Positions 28,450 through 33,699 of a DNA stretch of 34,009 bases are shown here, piece by piece. A model generated the notes under the pieces. The model had not been told where the DNA came from. It saw nothing but the letters and a program-made list of their open reading frames with translations, and made no database searches. Each line of letters begins with the position of its first letter. Within the stretch, counting starts at the first letter, position 1. Source of the stretch: Candidatus Thorarchaeota archaeon (GTDB lineage: Archaea; Asgardarchaeota; Thorarchaeia; Thorarchaeales; Thorarchaeaceae); NCBI GenBank assembly GCA_016839605.1, contig JAEOTX010000149.1:1-34009 (forward strand), read 5' to 3'. The translations under genes were made by a program, and so were the position numbers.

Positions 28450-29754
28450 CTAAAGACGTTCCTTGATTTCATTGGTCAGATTCTCAATCTTGACTTGCGT
28501 GGTCTCCTTGGTGCTCATATTTCTTAGACTTGCCTCGCCTTTTTCGATGTCTCGTTGACCAACAATCACAACAAACTTGGCCTTTCTAGACTCCGCCTGT
28601 TCAAACAGCTTCTTGAGAGGTCTCTCCATGAGATCACATTCTCCAGAGATGCCTTCGCTGGCTAATTCAGCAAGTAGCTTCATGCCATATTTGACCATGG
28701 GTCTCTTTATGGGGGCAATATAGACATCAATCCCAGTATCTAGCTTATCACCAAAACCACGTGCCATCAGGATGTCTATGAGTCGATCGATGCCCATTGA
28801 GATACCAGTAGCAGGTGTAGGCTGCCCGCCAAATTGCTCTATGAGGTTGTCATATCGACCTCCCCCGCCAATTGAACCTAGCTTCGGCTTTCCGAGATAG
28901 GCAACTTCGAATACTGGTCCGGTGTAGTAATCAAGCCCACGAGCGAGAGACATATCGAACTCGGTGAACTCGCCTAATCCACTCTCATCAAAGATCTCGG
29001 CCATTAGTTGTAACTCCTCAACGCCCTTCATTCCCGTTTCAGATCCCTCAAGAAGCGCTGCAAATTTGTCAAGCGTTTCTAGGCCGGAACCCCTGACTTG
29101 AATAGCATCAAGTAGGAAATCACTCTCTTTGGTGCCGATTCCTCGAGTCTTGAGTTCTTCTTTGACTCCTTCTCTACCAATCTTATCGAGCTTGTCAATC
29201 GCCCTGAAGCACTCGAATGCTAAGTTGTCAGAGACCCCTGCCTTCTCTACCATGCCCTTGAGCACCTTTCGATTGTTGATTCGTATGATATAGCTATCAC
29301 CAAGAACTCGTTTCAATAGCTCAAGAGCCACAAGAATCACTTCTGCATCCGCAGCCGAGCTGCTGGCACCCACGATATCTACATCAGCCTGACTGAATTC
29401 CCGGTACCGTCCTGGTTGGGGCCTATCATATCTCCATGCCTTTCCTATTGCATACCGCTTGAATGGCTTTGGCAGATGAGGATTTGAAGCTGAGATTCTG
29501 GCCAACGGAATCGTTAGGTCAAATATGAGTCCCAACTCTCGATCGCCCTTATCTTTGAATTTGAAGGTCTCTGCTTCTATATCATCGCCGCCCTTTGCAG
29601 AAATTGTTTCCCAGAGTTCCATCACTGGAGAATCTAAGGGCTCATAGCCGAAATGCTTGAAGACCTCAATTGCGGTGGCAATCAAGTACTCTCGAATTCT
29701 CATCTCAGGACCCATAAGGTCCCTCATGCCTCGTACTCGTCTCAAATCTGACAA
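28450..29754 (-). CDS. hisS: Histidine--tRNA ligase
   Basis: RGMRD, FDLTIPLAR, WRYDRPQPGRYREF, LARGLDYYTG, GGGGRYD, GIDRL and the anticodon-binding domain. TTG start after GGAGG. Confidence 0.96.
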   Translation of the reverse strand: MSDLRRVRGMRDLMGPEMRIREYLIATAIEVFKHFGYEPLDSPVMELWETISAKGGDDIEAETFKFKDKGDRELGLIFDLTIPLARISASNPHLPKPFKRYAIGKAWRYDRPQPGRYREFSQADVDIVGASSSAADAEVILVALELLKRVLGDSYIIRINNRKVLKGMVEKAGVSDNLAFECFRAIDKLDKIGREGVKEELKTRGIGTKESDFLLDAIQVRGSGLETLDKFAALLEGSETGMKGVEELQLMAEIFDESGLGEFTEFDMSLARGLDYYTGPVFEVAYLGKPKLGSIGGGGRYDNLIEQFGGQPTPATGISMGIDRLIDILMARGFGDKLDTGIDVYIAPIKRPMVKYGMKLLAELASEGISGECDLMERPLKKLFEQAESRKAKFVVIVGQRDIEKGEASLRNMSTKETTQVKIENLTNEIKERL

Positions 29755-29909
29755 TTAGAAGTCCTCCATAAAATTCTCGCAGCAACAACTCCTTGGGGCG
29801 GCATAGAGTCCACTAACACAGTCATCATTGCAGATGAACTAAGCCACCAACATCCAATGTTGTCACCAAAGGCGAGTCGGCTGTGATGGACTTTAAGTCT
29901 TACGCTTGC

Positions 29910-31241
29910 TCATGCTATTGGGAGTATCCCAAAGAAGAGTAAGAGGATGAATATTATTACTCCTGCCGCCATGATCAATGAGTCCTTGGCTACCATCTTG
30001 AGCAGGGTGGTTTCACGATCTGAGGTATAGACATAGACCATTTTATTCAACACTGAGGTGGTAGTAGCGATGACAACGGCATACACTGCTGTTGAAAGCG
30101 ACATTGTTGCACCTGCAAATCCAATTCCGACAATTGCAACAATAGCCCCCGCTGAAGCAAAACCTCCAATGGATGCTGCCACAAGAACTCCCAAGTCAGC
30201 GTAGATGTCTTGTAGAAACAGCGAGAGGACAGACACACCAGCGAACACAAGAGCGAATCGAATCGCTGCTCCAAACTCAAAGGGTGATACTAAGGCACCT
30301 TCCAGTTGTTCGTCCTCAACCTTTTCTGACCTCTTGCTTACCCTGCGCATTCGATAAAGTCCAACAAGGAACAGTATTGCCAGAGGTATCATGTAGTATC
30401 TGAATATCTGGAGTGATGGGTCTACAATAATCAGAAGAACTCCATTCCTAAGAACCATGGCAACGTTTGCAAGGACTGCGCCTACTGCCGTCCTTCCAGG
30501 AAATGCTCTTTCAGTGCGAACGTGAAAGTCTGTCAAGCTTGAAACTGTTGCCTCGCTATTGGCAAATCCGCCAAAGAAACCGAAGAAGTATGGTCCCCTT
30601 CCTCGGAATTTCTTGACTAGCAGATAGTTGACAAAGCTGATTGTCAATAGGATAATTGCAAAGAGATAGATCTGGAAAGTCGGAACAGTTATTGTCCATA
30701 GCTGAACAGTCTGAGGCATCAGCGGCCACAGGAACAAGATCAGTACTCCCAGCTCAGCTGCGCTAATCATTTCCTCGCGTGTGATTACTTCAACTGCTGT
30801 TCTGAACTCTTGCTTGAATCCTAAGACAAGAAACACTAGGAATGAAACAGTCATAGCGAATACTGCCAATGGGCCTATAATCTGTCCAGGAGCAGGTATC
30901 TCATCGAGTCCTACAATCGTGCCCAATACAAAGGAGATTGCCAGAACGATTGATGTCGTCATTCCCTTGCGCATGGTTCGAAACATCTTGTAGATAACCT
31001 GAACTCCAATCAAGATTGTAGAGACCGCGATCGCATAAATCAGGATCAAAGAGTTGCTAGTAATCGTGTATGTGTAGGCAGAAACGGTTCCGAATAGACT
31101 CAGAAGACCAAATGATCTGACACCACCAGGTGACTCTTCTATGTCTCTCTTCTGTCGCTCAAGTCCAATGAGAGCTCCAACAGCGAAGCCTATCAAGCAT
31201 CTTACAACAAGGTCTGAACTGAGGAGCGTCTCTTGCATCAT
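29910..31241 (-). CDS. MgtC/SapB N-terminal domain plus DUF4010 membrane protein
   Basis: GALIGLERQ...GGVRSF (MgtC), ISFVNY, GFFGGFANSEAT, SPFEF..A.RFA (DUF4010-like). Highly hydrophobic. Confidence 0.85.
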   Translation of the reverse strand: MMQETLLSSDLVVRCLIGFAVGALIGLERQKRDIEESPGGVRSFGLLSLFGTVSAYTYTITSNSLILIYAIAVSTILIGVQVIYKMFRTMRKGMTTSIVLAISFVLGTIVGLDEIPAPGQIIGPLAVFAMTVSFLVFLVLGFKQEFRTAVEVITREEMISAAELGVLILFLWPLMPQTVQLWTITVPTFQIYLFAIILLTISFVNYLLVKKFRGRGPYFFGFFGGFANSEATVSSLTDFHVRTERAFPGRTAVGAVLANVAMVLRNGVLLIIVDPSLQIFRYYMIPLAILFLVGLYRMRRVSKRSEKVEDEQLEGALVSPFEFGAAIRFALVFAGVSVLSLFLQDIYADLGVLVAASIGGFASAGAIVAIVGIGFAGATMSLSTAVYAVVIATTTSVLNKMVYVYTSDRETTLLKMVAKDSLIMAAGVIIFILLLFFGILPIA

Positions 31242-31318
31242 GAATCACACTCTGCTCTATGCGGAACTAACGGTTGGGTTTGAATCCCATTTAAGACATT
31301 GTGTCTTTGCACAATATA

Positions 31319-31346
31319 ACAAAGAAAAGAGAAGACGAGGTCGACC
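31319..31346 (-). terminator. Oligo-T archaeal terminator after rpoK
   Basis: Minus-strand TCTTCTCTTTTCTTTGT shortly downstream of the stop at 31347. Confidence 0.5.
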
Positions 31347-32024
31347 TCAGTCGAGCCTCGTGTTTTCTAATAGACGAGTGAGTGGGATGTCGAAATATTC
31401 ACCTGTTGGCAACGTTCTTCTGACAGTCATCGGGAGGACACGAGCACGTAGTTCTGCTTCTGCCAGAGAAAACAGCTCACTGGGGGCAGTTCGTGTATCG
31501 ACTATCACAGGTGCACCCATTGAAATCTGCAAAGCCCTTGCTCCAATAATCCTGGCTTTCTCAAACCTACTCAGCCATTTCGGACCAATGGGAATGCCCA
31601 TTGATACCTTATCTGTTTCAAGTCCTGTTTTCAGACTGGATCGGATCTTGGCGCGAGCAATCTCCTCAGCCGGAGGTAGTTCATGAACATCAGGATCTGG
31701 TTCGGGGGCTTTCTTCCTCTTTGATTTCTTGCCCTTTCGAGTAAGGTCTATCTCTCCAGCCTCGACTGCTTCTTTCAGCTTTGTCGCAGCTGTAATGAAA
31801 TCAACTGCCTTTGCTGTACTGACTCCAGGAACGGCCGCTGCAAGCTCTTCAGAATCTGCTGAAGCGATCTTATCTATGGTATCATAGCCGGCTGCGACCA
31901 ATTTCTCGGCATTCTTGGGTCCAACCGATTGGATATTTGTGAGAATCTGTGCTTTCTCAGCATCAGTTTCCTCTTTAGATTCCTCTTCAGTCTTGGTTTC
32001 CGTTTCCTTGGGGTCGTCTGACAT
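31347..32024 (-). CDS. rpoK: DNA-directed RNA polymerase subunit Rpo6 (K) with N-terminal acidic tract and helix-hairpin-helix domain
   Basis: The C-terminal ~80 aa are Rpo6/RPB6 ([22 protein letters not shown]...[10 protein letters not shown]). The N-terminal part has tandem HhH motifs ([17 protein letters not shown]; VPGVSTAKA). ATG 32024 follows AGGTG; the track start is GTG 32030. Confidence 0.9.
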
Positions 32025-32058
32025 ACGCACACCTGCTCTCTATTGTGTTTGACTGCTT

Positions 32059-33699
32059 CTAATCCTCGTCGGCGTCAAAGTCGCCGCCAGGACCTGCTCC
32101 ACCCGCGTCAAAGGCTGCTCCCTTAGAGCTTATGACATCATCGATTTTTAGGATCATTTGCGCAGCTTCAGCTGATGACAAAACAATCTGCCTATTAACA
32201 AGTGCGGACTCAATGATTCGAGCCTTTTTCATGTCATCCACTTTACCCTTGCCAATATCTACACCATATGTGACTTTGCCAGCTGCATGAGCGTTTCTGA
32301 GATTCACTATCATGTCAATAGGATCTAGACCTGCGTTCTCAGCAAGAGTTGTTGGCAAAGACTCAATGGCATCAGCAAATGCATTCACTGCATATTGCTC
32401 ACGACCCTTGAGTGTTTCTGAGTAGTCTCGCAGTTGCTTTGCAATCTCTCCAGCCAGAGATCCGCCTCCATATGTGATGTACGGATGAATCACGATATCC
32501 CGCACAACATAGAGTGAGTCGTTTAACGCGCGGTCAACCTCGTCTACTATGTGGTCTGTGCCTCCTCTGACAAGAAGAGTAACAACCGATGTCTTCTTTG
32601 TGCCTTCTATGAAGAGCATCTTGTCCTCGCCAACCGTCCTCTGTTCCACAAGCTTTGCAGTTCCAAGGTCGTCCTTGGTGAGATTCTGAATCTTCGACAC
32701 AATTGTAGCGCCAGTTGTCCTGTGCAATCTCTCGATGTCTGATTTTTTGATTCTCCTCACAGCCATGATGTTCTCTTTTGCCAAGTAATGTTGCACAACA
32801 TCATCAATTCCCTTCTGGGCAATAACAACGGTCGCGCCCACCTCAACTATCTTGTCAACCATGGATTTCAGCATGCGGTCTTCCTCATCCAGGAAGCTCT
32901 GCATAGATGTGGGATCACTGATTGCAATCTTCGCATCAAATTCAGTCTTCTGAATCTCTAATGGACTCTCAAGAAGCACTATCTTGGCATTCTCAGCTTT
33001 CTTCGGCATGCCTGGATGTACTATCTCCTTGTCCAAAACCAAACCTTTCACCAGTTCAGTGGCATCTACCTGCATTCCTTCCTGTTTCTGTCTGGGAATG
33101 TCATCAATGTTCAATTCCTCATCAGGACCACGGTCCTTGTTAATGGCAAGTACAGCATCAACAACCACCTTTGACAGTTTGTCACGGGAGGTTGAGACGA
33201 ACTTGCTGGACATGGCTGTCCTAGAAGCATCAACGAGAATCTTCTTGTAACCGCTGCTCTCAGGATCGACTTTCTCTGCTGTCGCCTCGATGACATCAAG
33301 GGCTTTGTCTGCTGCCTTGCGGTATCCACTGACGATGGTAGTTGGATGGATTTTCTGATCAAGAAGAGTTTCCGCTGCCTTCAATAGCTCTCCGGTGAAT
33401 ATCGCAGCAGTTGTGGTCCCATCTCCGACCTCTGCGTCAACCGTCTTAGCAACTTCAATCACCATCTTCGCTGCAGGATGCGCTACATCCATCTCTTTCA
33501 GAATGGTAGCACCGTCATTTGATACAGTGATATCCCCAAAGCTGTCAACTAACATTTTATCTGCGCCCTTGGGGCCTAGTGCAGACTTGACTGCCTCAGC
33601 TATTACAATCGCAGCCATGATGTTGTTTCTCTGTGCATCACGACCACGAGTCCTCTCGGTGTCTTCTCTCAGTACTATTACTGGTACCTGTTGACTCAA
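32059..33699 (-). CDS. ths: Thermosome subunit (group II chaperonin)
   Basis: [51 protein letters not shown] start after GGAGG at 33708-33712. Confidence 0.96.

Follow-up and report, generated by a model that had tools for sequence, protein, structure and literature searches.

An N-terminal tandem helix-hairpin-helix domain and basic patch on the RNA polymerase subunit Rpo6 of one Thorarchaeota family

Rpo6, the counterpart of RPB6 and bacterial omega, is a universal assembly subunit of RNA polymerase that is usually regarded as passive. The DNA analysed here (the window; 34,009 nt, contig JAEOTX010000149.1 of a Candidatus Thorarchaeota archaeon) encodes an Rpo6 with a folded domain at its N terminus. 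Is this extension truly part of the protein, how is it distributed, and what might it do on a polymerase?

The complete rpo6 (rpoK) CDS lies on the minus strand at 31347..32024, stop included, as an open frame of 225 residues that starts with MSDD; the assignment draws on the translated frame, Pfam and NCBIfam matches and full-length homologs, and re-translation confirmed the coordinates and strand given in the first-pass annotation. From N to C terminus, the protein consists of an acidic tail, an (HhH)2 domain of five helices, an invariant K/R patch, a Pro/acidic connector and a full Rpo6/RpoK core. Translation and profile matches bear out the earlier description of a single continuous Rpo6 in which an acidic tract, a basic segment and a genuine (HhH)2 domain are present.

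The ATG at 32024 is preceded, at a distance of 5 nt, by a Shine-Dalgarno-like AGGTG (32030..32034, minus strand), and 23 of the 24 fused rpo6 loci have GGTG 4–16 nt 5' of their first ATG. The GTG at 32030 was rejected as a start, being part of this motif. Translation from the internal Met142 (MGIPIGP), which the first-pass annotation had considered, was likewise rejected: Met142 is not kept (8 of 23 loci have non-start codons for K, L, I or R there), and strong purifying selection also acts on the part upstream of it. A weak AAGGT precedes Met142 in this genome. The gene thus yields a single 225-residue protein that begins at the MSDD ATG and includes the N-terminal part. RNA-library contigs from two studies, from relatives 85–97% identical, cover the connector and the start of rpo6, but these short metatranscriptome pieces, with gaps, unspecified strand and possible DNA carry-over, give a weak hint. 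Independent DNA contigs span the HhH/core junction, and dozens of independent assemblies contain the same junction; the assembly artefact that had been raised as a concern was rejected. A profile search of this genome (80%-complete assembly) returned one significant rpo6 match and no second, confirming the gene as the sole copy.

The thermosome (Cpn60/TCP-1) gene (32059..33699, minus strand; PF00118, E 1.6e-174) ends 34 nt upstream of rpo6, and the two genes are probably co-transcribed; one RNA-library contig, again weak evidence, bridges them (31997–32078). Directly after the rpo6 stop, a consensus scan found a short hairpin and T-rich run (31336..31349, minus strand), possibly the end of the transcription unit. 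Adjacency of thermosome gene and rpo6 is seen at nearly all loci of the GTDB family of this genome, which bears the fused Rpo6 (f1), and likewise in its sister family (f2) and two other Asgard lineages. The order thermosome–rpo6–DUF4010/MgtC–hisS is kept across f1 and in f2, whose rpo6 lacks HhH. The fused rpo6 is a genuine ortholog in the orthologous position.

The Rpo6/RpoK core (residues 146–225; 31350..31589, minus strand), with an RPB6-like C-terminal strand pair, is identified by NF002207, the Sulfolobus chain 2pmz_K and Foldseek. NCBIfam NF002207 (RpoK) matches residues 139–224 with 83.8 bits (cut-off 71) and NF002208 scores 71.9 (cut-off 57); with Pfam PF01192 (cut-off 26) the match is borderline, the protein scoring 24.7 bits and the search of the genome giving 26.6. 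Solved Rpo6/RPB6 chains match residues 146–221, the best being Sulfolobus Rpo6 (2pmz_K, E 7.6e-14). The AlphaFold2 (AF2) model of the core (pLDDT 83–92) has the Rpo6 fold of two helices and a C-terminal strand pair and superimposes on RPB6/Rpo6 chains in Foldseek with an r.m.s.d. of 1.2–1.4 Å over ~72 residues (TM ~0.8 relative to the target). In sequence and fold, the core matches canonical Rpo6/RpoK, RPB6 (RPABC2) and bacterial omega.

The (HhH)2 domain comprises residues 25–90 (31755..31952, minus strand) and is defined by HHH_5, AF2 and structural matches. Pfam HHH_5 (PF14520) covers residues 27–73 (E 2.3e-10, 41.3 bits, cut-off 27), and AF2 places five helices (21–29, 36–44, 50–54, 58–64 and 70–89) with moderate confidence (pLDDT 62–82). 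The first hairpin reads SVGPK (f1 consensus PGVGPK) and the second PGVS. Across 35 sequences, G35, K41, G67, S69 and K72 are invariant, and position 37 (K here) is occupied by K or R throughout; the conserved residues are those of the hairpins, the lysines and the hydrophobic core, and no separate conserved surface patch is evident in this alignment. The domain evolves under strong constraint (dN/dS 0.06), purifying selection on the fusion's N-terminal part being at the level of the core, and is itself mildly acidic (net charge −3 here, median −4).

A fold search with the whole AF2 model returned Rpo6/RPB6 chains only; the N-terminal part was then predicted alone. By sequence, residues 9–96 match solved structures of RadA/Rad51 N-domains, of the HhH repeats in Topo V and of the N-termini of haloarchaeal L32e. 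The closest solved relative is the RadA N-domain 1pzn (E 1.3e-5), and RadA N-domains superimpose with an r.m.s.d. of 0.7–0.9 Å over 57–58 residues at 40–42% identity; RadA/Rad51 and Rpo6 modules also share a canonical hairpin first and a G-x-S hairpin second, although their host proteins differ. The best whole-domain structural matches are NusA AR1 and AR2 (Z 9.9–11.8, with 11.8 for AR1), whereas the NusA C-terminal repeat profile reaches only E 0.049 on the fused Rpo6, far under its cut-off. The comparison with the RadA N-domain and the NusA acidic repeats drawn in the first-pass annotation holds at the level of the fold. Its further label, alpha-CTD-like, would apply to the general fold at most. 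The alpha-CTD and NusA AR1/AR2 are, like the domain predicted on Rpo6, of the five-helix (HhH)2 type and attached to transcription machinery, but membership of the alpha-CTD family was rejected, PF03118 (RNA_pol_A_CTD) giving no match at E ≤1. The structural matches listed include a 2jzb chain that is NusA AR2 and no alpha-CTD chain, an absence that is compatible with similarity.

On either side of the (HhH)2 domain are segments of opposite charge. The tail (residues 1–24; 31953..32024, minus strand) has a net charge of −7; in 35 homologs it is 19–73 residues long and almost always acidic (median −7, range −32 to 0). Its dN/dS is 0.27 and its pLDDT below 50. The basic patch (residues 96–105; 31710..31739, minus strand) is conserved: in 35 sequences K102, R103 and K104 never vary, K100 and K105 hardly do, and the segment has a net charge of +5 to +8 over 11–12 residues; in the present protein, the charge over residues 94–105 is +8.

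Between patch and core, the Pro/acidic connector (residues 106–145, with a short helix at 134–141; 31590..31709, minus strand) is conserved and of fixed length, 18 + 22 residues with zero indels in 35 sequences. A106, P111, L116, L131, G134 and G143 are invariant, pLDDT is 70–86, and dN/dS over residues 91–145 (0.03) is the lowest in the protein. These properties do not agree with the flexible tether previously proposed. By contrast with the alpha-CTD, which hangs C-terminally on a variable flexible linker, fixed length and the lowest dN/dS of the protein suggest that the Rpo6 connector is a docked or bound segment.

Searches returned 269 homologs at E ≤1e-3, and among the 120 listed most are full-length fusions of ~220–232 residues; the fused frame is found in more than 200 protein clusters from independent assemblies, and chance does not account for it. 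A survey of Rpo6 architectures in Asgard archaea, a check suggested by the first-pass annotation, located the full-length fusion in about 80 of 85 f1 genomes, from 16 genera, whereas all other Asgard families match the Rpo6 core only, with open frames of ~100–130 residues lacking HhH. In the six f1 genomes without a full match, rpo6 is absent or cut at the contig start, and partial copies in three genomes (G327, G378 and G381) all stop at contig ends; no f1 relative encodes the parts separately. Of four candidate stand-alone HhH-plus-linker proteins (P0177, P0180, P0144 and P0126), at least some are fragments: P0177 is annotated as partial and clusters with a 232-residue full-length protein, and P0180 is from a 755-nt contig. 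The representative search also contained P0223 (LarA plus Rpo6 core, 553 residues) and P0269, which may be gene-call fusions.

The Rpo6 (HhH)2 modules form one clade (support 99/91) in a 46-row tree of HhH2 modules. This tree did not resolve whether L32e, Top6A or RadA was the donor, and it showed no recent exchange of modules between host proteins. As the best explanation of the whole, we propose, with about even confidence, that the orthologous rpo6 of the f1 ancestor received, in situ at its 5' end, a portable module consisting of a RadA/NusA-AR-type (HhH)2 domain and then a Lys/Arg patch, which has been inherited vertically since. A second lineage has Rpo6 proteins with one or two HhH2 modules at the C terminus, the opposite end from f1, and sister proteins carry PAKKAAKK repeats at the same place; this lineage is termed Heimdall-like solely because its core is 70% identical to that of a Heimdallarchaeota MAG without the fusion. 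Its gain of HhH2 was independent of that in f1. In Helarchaeota, the N-terminal tail of Rpo6 is K-rich. We know of no other cellular multisubunit RNA polymerase subunit with HhH2 outside Thorarchaeota and the Heimdall-like lineage, and the homolog and architecture searches returned none.

The fused architecture itself has been noticed before. Shematorova & Shpakovski (Int J Mol Sci 2026;27:4679; PMC13257274) devote one sentence to a long Thorarchaeota Rpo6 N terminus with a folded fragment, cite an HhH fold paper and present AlphaFold3 models that suggest contacts with Rpo5 and the RID of Rpo1; their Rpo6 belongs to the same protein family and has the same architecture. That report contains neither distribution, selection, start-site and synteny data nor the second fusion lineage, the L32e/Top6A link or an experiment. 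The first-pass statement that no characterised example is known thus still holds, although the architecture was already in print. With eukaryotic RPB6, the fused protein shares an acidic, disordered N-terminal tip (pLDDT and charge as above), but the RPB6 tail is disordered without a folded domain (PMC8754651), whereas here a folded domain sets the tail apart from the core. Because it is confined to one family, the fusion is no step towards the eukaryotic tail.

What, then, might the arm do? Its most likely role, by analogy with Rpo13, is that of a non-specific nucleic-acid grip on RNA polymerase, a proposal to which we assign roughly equal odds of being right or wrong; the assembly into polymerase, the placement of the module and the binding target are its parts that we infer. 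The core would assemble at the clamp base beside Rpo5, as in all Rpo6/RPB6, and the fixed-length connector would run along the polymerase surface and position HhH2 and the K/R patch for sequence-independent contacts with a nucleic-acid backbone, the likeliest target being double-stranded DNA entering or leaving the polymerase. Such contacts would stabilize polymerase–DNA complexes, a role that in Sulfolobales falls to the Lys-rich tail of Rpo13, and the basic patch may be masked by the acidic tip as long as DNA is absent. Rpo13 (PMC3479171) and the Rpo6 arm are both small polymerase-borne modules with a Glu-rich N-terminal tail, a helical core and a Lys-rich segment, and the authors of the Rpo13 study predicted analogous factors in other archaea. 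The likeness is one of layout only: Rpo13 is a subunit in its own right whose core is a helix-turn-helix, and homology was rejected, PF12136 (RNA_pol_Rpo13) having no match in the fused Rpo6 (P0001) and none genome-wide at E ≤1.

Binding to the backbone irrespective of sequence is suggested by the conserved hairpins and lysines and the adjoining K/R patch, in particular the canonical first hairpin (PGVGPK), the invariant hairpin glycines, K41, K72 and K102-R103-K104. Some Rpo6 proteins (P0019 and P0022) contain a tandem duplication of the module, and such variation in copy number suits binding of the avidity type. The alternation of HhH2 and PAKKAAKK repeats on Heimdall-like Rpo6 and the K-rich tail in Helarchaeota would also fit a grip. 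In Topo V arrays, haloarchaeal HhH-L32e and HhH–polymerase chimeras, HhH2 is appended as a sequence-independent element of affinity or processivity (PMC9489208, PMC8313265), although the host there is the ribosome or an enzyme acting on DNA. In a chimeric Phi29 DNA polymerase, HhH domains are reported to increase both salt tolerance and replication performance (PMC8313265). Against a grip, however, a single Topo V HhH motif brought no gain to a chimeric T7 RNA polymerase (PMC12630135). The mildly acidic charge of HhH2 would also count against it, as would the moderate AF2 confidence for the predicted domain and the fact that the best whole-domain matches, the NusA AR domains, bind proteins, not DNA.

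This last point leads to a serious, though less probable, alternative, in which HhH2 and the acidic tail are a docking arm on RNA polymerase that recruits a Thorarchaeota factor of transcription, repair or chromatin; the K/R patch would then either contribute to the site of binding or pair with the acidic tail within the molecule. NusA AR1 and AR2 match the whole domain (Z 11.8, 10.7 and 9.9; r.m.s.d. 1.6–2.5 Å over 70–71 residues), NusA AR2 binds the alpha-CTD, the alpha-CTD binds activators, and (HhH)2 domains pair mutually in ERCC1-XPF and Hef, which are among the fold matches here. The negative charge of HhH2, with an acidic tail ahead of it, and the strong conservation and fixed length of the connector would suit a specific interface. 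In eukaryotes, the N-terminal tail of RPB6 docks the PH domain of p62 (PMC8754651). A docking arm, however, lacks a partner candidate, and conservation on HhH2 follows hairpins, lysines and hydrophobic core with no distinct surface patch evident. To our knowledge, TFIIH p62 has no archaeal homolog. Variable numbers of modules on other proteins of the family and the alternation with PAKKAAKK repeats fit unspecific nucleic-acid affinity better.

Those other proteins are L32e and Top6A, which carry HhH2 and a K-rich linker in f1 only, among the genomes sampled, Top6A in arrays of 2–7 copies. Their modules, each followed by a K-rich linker, are the nearest to the Rpo6 HhH2: against an Rpo6-HhH2 profile they score 37–61 bits, whereas the N-domains of f1's own RadA score 25–30. 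The occurrence of these nearest modules on Top6A and L32e, with their K-rich linkers, speaks for nucleic-acid binding. That the tags on Rpo6, L32e and Top6A act together, through one scaffold (DNA or chromatin) or through each other, we consider unlikely; if true, transcription, translation and DNA untangling would be physically co-localized, and the Rpo6 arm would be what the polymerase contributes to a coupling system specific to this lineage, instead of a DNA grip working alone. As an account of the arm, binding of the three modules to each other or to a shared scaffold, whether on chromatin or in transcription–translation coupling, such that polymerase, ribosomes and topoisomerase VI are brought together, is quite improbable. 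It would explain why the three fusions share an f1-restricted distribution and why their modules are closer to one another than to RadA, and HhH2–HhH2 pairing has precedents in the NusA AR2:alpha-CTD complex (2jzb) and ERCC1-XPF; yet it is drawn from co-distribution only, haloarchaeal L32e bears an HhH domain too, the module tree gives no sign of recent exchange between hosts, and independent gains of generic nucleic-acid affinity are the simpler account.

Least probable of all is that there is no functional fusion at all, through mis-assembly, upstream read-through, a start at Met142 or a paralog outside the polymerase: although Met142 has its weak upstream AAGGT and polymerase assembly is only inferred, an artefact or Met142 start is already contradicted by the recurrence of the frame in about 80 species genomes, the independently spanned junction, core-level selection on the N-terminal part, the conserved SD-like motif, the non-start codons at residue 142 and the sole gene copy in its orthologous position.

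The significance of the fused Rpo6 has clear bounds, in that the architecture is in print, belongs to one family and lies off the eukaryote line, Heimdall-type and eukaryotic Rpo6/RPB6 being without the f1 fusion. Within these bounds, a subunit regarded as passive bears, throughout one Asgard family, a folded and strongly selected module of nucleic-acid-binding type. Rpo13 has a comparable role in Sulfolobales, as do the eukaryotic Rpb5 N-domain and the bacterial alpha-CTD. Two independent gains of HhH2, at opposite ends of the protein, point to the termini of Rpo6 as a recurrent site for new contacts of the archaeal polymerase.

The fused subunit is encoded on the reverse strand at 31347–32024 (stop codon included) as a 225-residue ORF; the first-pass annotation had its description and coordinates right. 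It comprises an acidic tail (residues 1–24, net charge −7), a double helix-hairpin-helix domain ((HhH)2; residues 25–90, 66 residues), a ten-residue basic patch (residues 96–105), a proline-rich and acidic connector (residues 106–145) and the Rpo6 core (residues 146–225). A Pfam search of the whole protein places HHH_5 at residues 27–73 (E = 2.3e-10, exceeding the cut-off), and the NCBIfam model for RpoK (NF002207) matches residues 139–224 with 83.8 bits against a cut-off of 71. Searches against sequences of solved structures link the C-terminal part to Sulfolobus Rpo6 and eukaryotic RPB6, and the N-terminal part to RadA/Rad51 N-domains, the HhH repeats of topoisomerase V and the N-terminus of haloarchaeal L32e.

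Five lines of evidence show that this fusion is one real protein. It is the sole Rpo6 of the genome (a Thorarchaeota MAG, 80% complete), and independent DNA contigs span the junction, both points that the first-pass annotation had marked for checking. A word-index search returned 269 homologs; most of the 120 that were listed are full-length fusions that carry the annotation ‘RNA polymerase subunit K, Thorarchaeota’, and the fused frame also recurs across species genomes of the family (below). Across 24 fused loci, the thermosome gene ends ~35 nt upstream of the first ATG, which is preceded by GGTG in 23. An internal start at Met142 (MGIPIGP), raised earlier as a possibility, is contradicted by 8 of 23 loci, in which K, L, I or R stands at the aligned position and the codon could not serve as a start. 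Over the seven closest genomes, dN/dS comes to 0.27 in the tail, 0.06 in the (HhH)2 domain and 0.03 across residues 91–145, ratios that are rough because dS is close to saturation; dN of the N-terminal parts is as low as that of the core. RNA libraries from two studies yielded short contigs that map to the connector and to the start, one of them bridging into the thermosome gene, a weak hint of rpo6 expression and of co-transcription with that gene.

In an AF2 model built from a 35-sequence alignment, the core (pLDDT 83–92) superposes on RPB6/Rpo6 chains at 1.2–1.4 Å. When the N-terminal 135 residues were modelled alone (70 sequences), five helices formed between residues 21 and 89 (pLDDT 69–82), with the tail disordered and the connector extended. 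For this N-terminal model, Foldseek ranked the RadA N-domain first (r.m.s.d. 0.7–0.9 Å over 57–58 residues, 40–42% identity), followed by topoisomerase V HhH and NusA AR1/AR2; an exhaustive aligner ranked NusA AR1 and AR2 first (Z = 11.8, 10.7 and 9.9), ahead of Rad51 N-domains and the HhH domains of Hef, UvrC, ligase and Pol X. The domain is therefore a standard (HhH)2, nearest to the RadA N-domain in sequence, whereas its overall shape is nearest to the NusA acidic repeats.

The first-pass annotation had taken this domain to be flexibly tethered. A passive linker would drift in both sequence and length. Across 35 sequences with identities as low as 50%, segment lengths are constant (66 residues for (HhH)2, 11–12 for the basic patch, 18 and 22 for the connector), and K102-R103-K104, A106, P111, L116, L131, G134 and G143 are invariant, so that the connector is no loose tether. 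From this pattern of conservation, it probably either lies along the surface of the polymerase or serves as a binding site in its own right. In AlphaFold3 models, Thorarchaeota Rpo6 is reported to make contact with Rpo5 and the Rpo1 RID (PMC13257274).

Full-length matches occur in ~80 of the 85 genomes of one GTDB family, covering 16 genera, when 400 Asgard species genomes are searched; in the remaining family genomes, rpo6 is either not assembled or cut at a contig edge. All other Asgard families, the sister family within the same order among them, match only residues ~135–220, in open frames of ~100–160 aa. A search of 1.84 billion cluster representatives turned up just three full-length clusters with the Thorarchaeota arrangement. 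Throughout the family, rpo6 lies in the order thermosome–rpo6–DUF4010/MgtC membrane protein–hisS (28450–33699 in the window; loci L005–L022). The sister family shares this arrangement, and its Rpo6 begins with a charged extension but lacks HhH; because the order is common to both, the module was inserted in place into an orthologous rpo6. In a tree of modules, those from 15 Rpo6 proteins group together as one clade (support 99/91), consistent with a single acquisition followed by vertical descent. The usual archaeal rpoN–rpoK ribosomal-protein neighbourhood was not seen around rpo6 at loci L005–L022, and thermosome and rpo6 are neighbours in two more distantly related Asgard lineages as well (L020, L021).

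Charged N-terminal extensions lacking HhH also mark other Asgard Rpo6 proteins (P0138, P0124). In the sister family, the tail reads acidic–KPKAKK–acidic/Pro and may represent the state preceding the insertion. Helarchaeota Rpo6 has a lysine-rich N-terminal tail with a long AKK-rich basic tract and no HhH. In some Thorarchaeota proteins of 320–325 aa (P0019, P0022, P0270, P0271), the whole unit of (HhH)2, basic patch and connector is duplicated in tandem.

A second lineage, comprising six protein clusters (P0127, P0273–P0276, P0166), displays the reverse order, with one or two (HhH)2 modules placed C-terminal to the Rpo6 core; sister proteins carry PAKKAAKK repeats in their place (P0277, P0278). 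Its core shares 70% identity with the core from a Heimdallarchaeota MAG whose Rpo6 is unfused (loci L040–L044), and this lineage, known from short metagenome contigs only and with unfused closest species genomes, is probably Heimdallarchaeia. Separately, P0223 (553 aa) is a LarA-like protein that ends in an Rpo6 core, and P0269 (512 aa) combines an Rpo6 core with a weak match to Tox-ART-HYD1; both may be fused gene calls on metagenome contigs.

Within the source genome, the Rpo6 module is most closely related to the N-terminal modules of L32e (45% identity) and of the topoisomerase VI A subunit (Top6A; two copies), each followed by a lysine-rich linker, ~60 residues long in L32e (C49:4764–5561, locus L033; Top6A, C148:3–1724, locus L034). 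An (HhH)2 is present in RadA and in one membrane protein too. Scored with a profile built from the Rpo6 module, L32e modules reach 48–57 bits, Top6A modules 37–61 and RadA N-domains 25–30. L32e bears one to three modules in 17 of 17 family genomes and is core only in other families (121 Asgard genomes sampled); haloarchaeal L32e also has an HhH N-terminus, presumably gained independently. Top6A arrays of 2–7 modules occur in six of six family genomes and in the source genome, with other families core only (61 Asgard genomes sampled); module-bearing frames in relatives span 642–954 aa, compared with ~390–480 aa elsewhere in that sample. In four family genomes (G392:C39, G315:C16, G387:C13, G323:C76), radA lies 3–6 kb from top6A on the same contig, both with (HhH)2. 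The membrane protein, polytopic and 566 aa long, ends in a cytoplasmic (HhH)2 (C38:3404–3580, locus L038) that groups with L32e modules on a long branch.

The most economical reading, to which we give an even chance, is that (HhH)2 and the basic patch would together act as a portable, sequence-independent nucleic-acid-affinity module, since module copy number varies, a basic stretch always accompanies it, its host proteins act on nucleic acids, and (HhH)2 alternates with simple lysine repeats in the second lineage. Rpo6 sits at the clamp base, adjoining Rpo5 (PMC8754651, PMC13257274), from where the module could reach DNA entering or leaving the polymerase. The best functional precedent is Rpo13 of Sulfolobales, a small protein bound to the polymerase in which a helical core is combined with one Glu-rich and one Lys-rich tail; the authors of the Rpo13 study predicted that other archaea have analogous factors (PMC3479171). 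A search of the source genome found no Rpo13. The main rival to nucleic-acid affinity, a factor-docking arm, draws on the mildly acidic net charge of (HhH)2, its closest shape match to NusA AR domains and a connector conserved like a specific interface, and we consider it rather unlikely. The bolder idea that the tags on polymerase, ribosome and topoisomerase VI act together seems improbable.

The finding is of moderate interest, the architecture being already in print (Shematorova & Shpakovski 2026, PMC13257274); literature searches turned up no further mention of it. New here are the synteny that reveals in-place insertion, the evidence on start site and selection, a connector that is not flexible, the parallel with Rpo13, and the same module on L32e and Top6A of the same family. 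The fusion is no forerunner of the RPB6 tail in eukaryotes, because it is confined to one family, because the Heimdall-like modules sit at the opposite, C-terminal end with the closest genomes unfused, and because eukaryotic RPB6, to our knowledge, has no HhH. Fused Rpo6 is a real, conserved and lineage-specific variant of a universal polymerase subunit.
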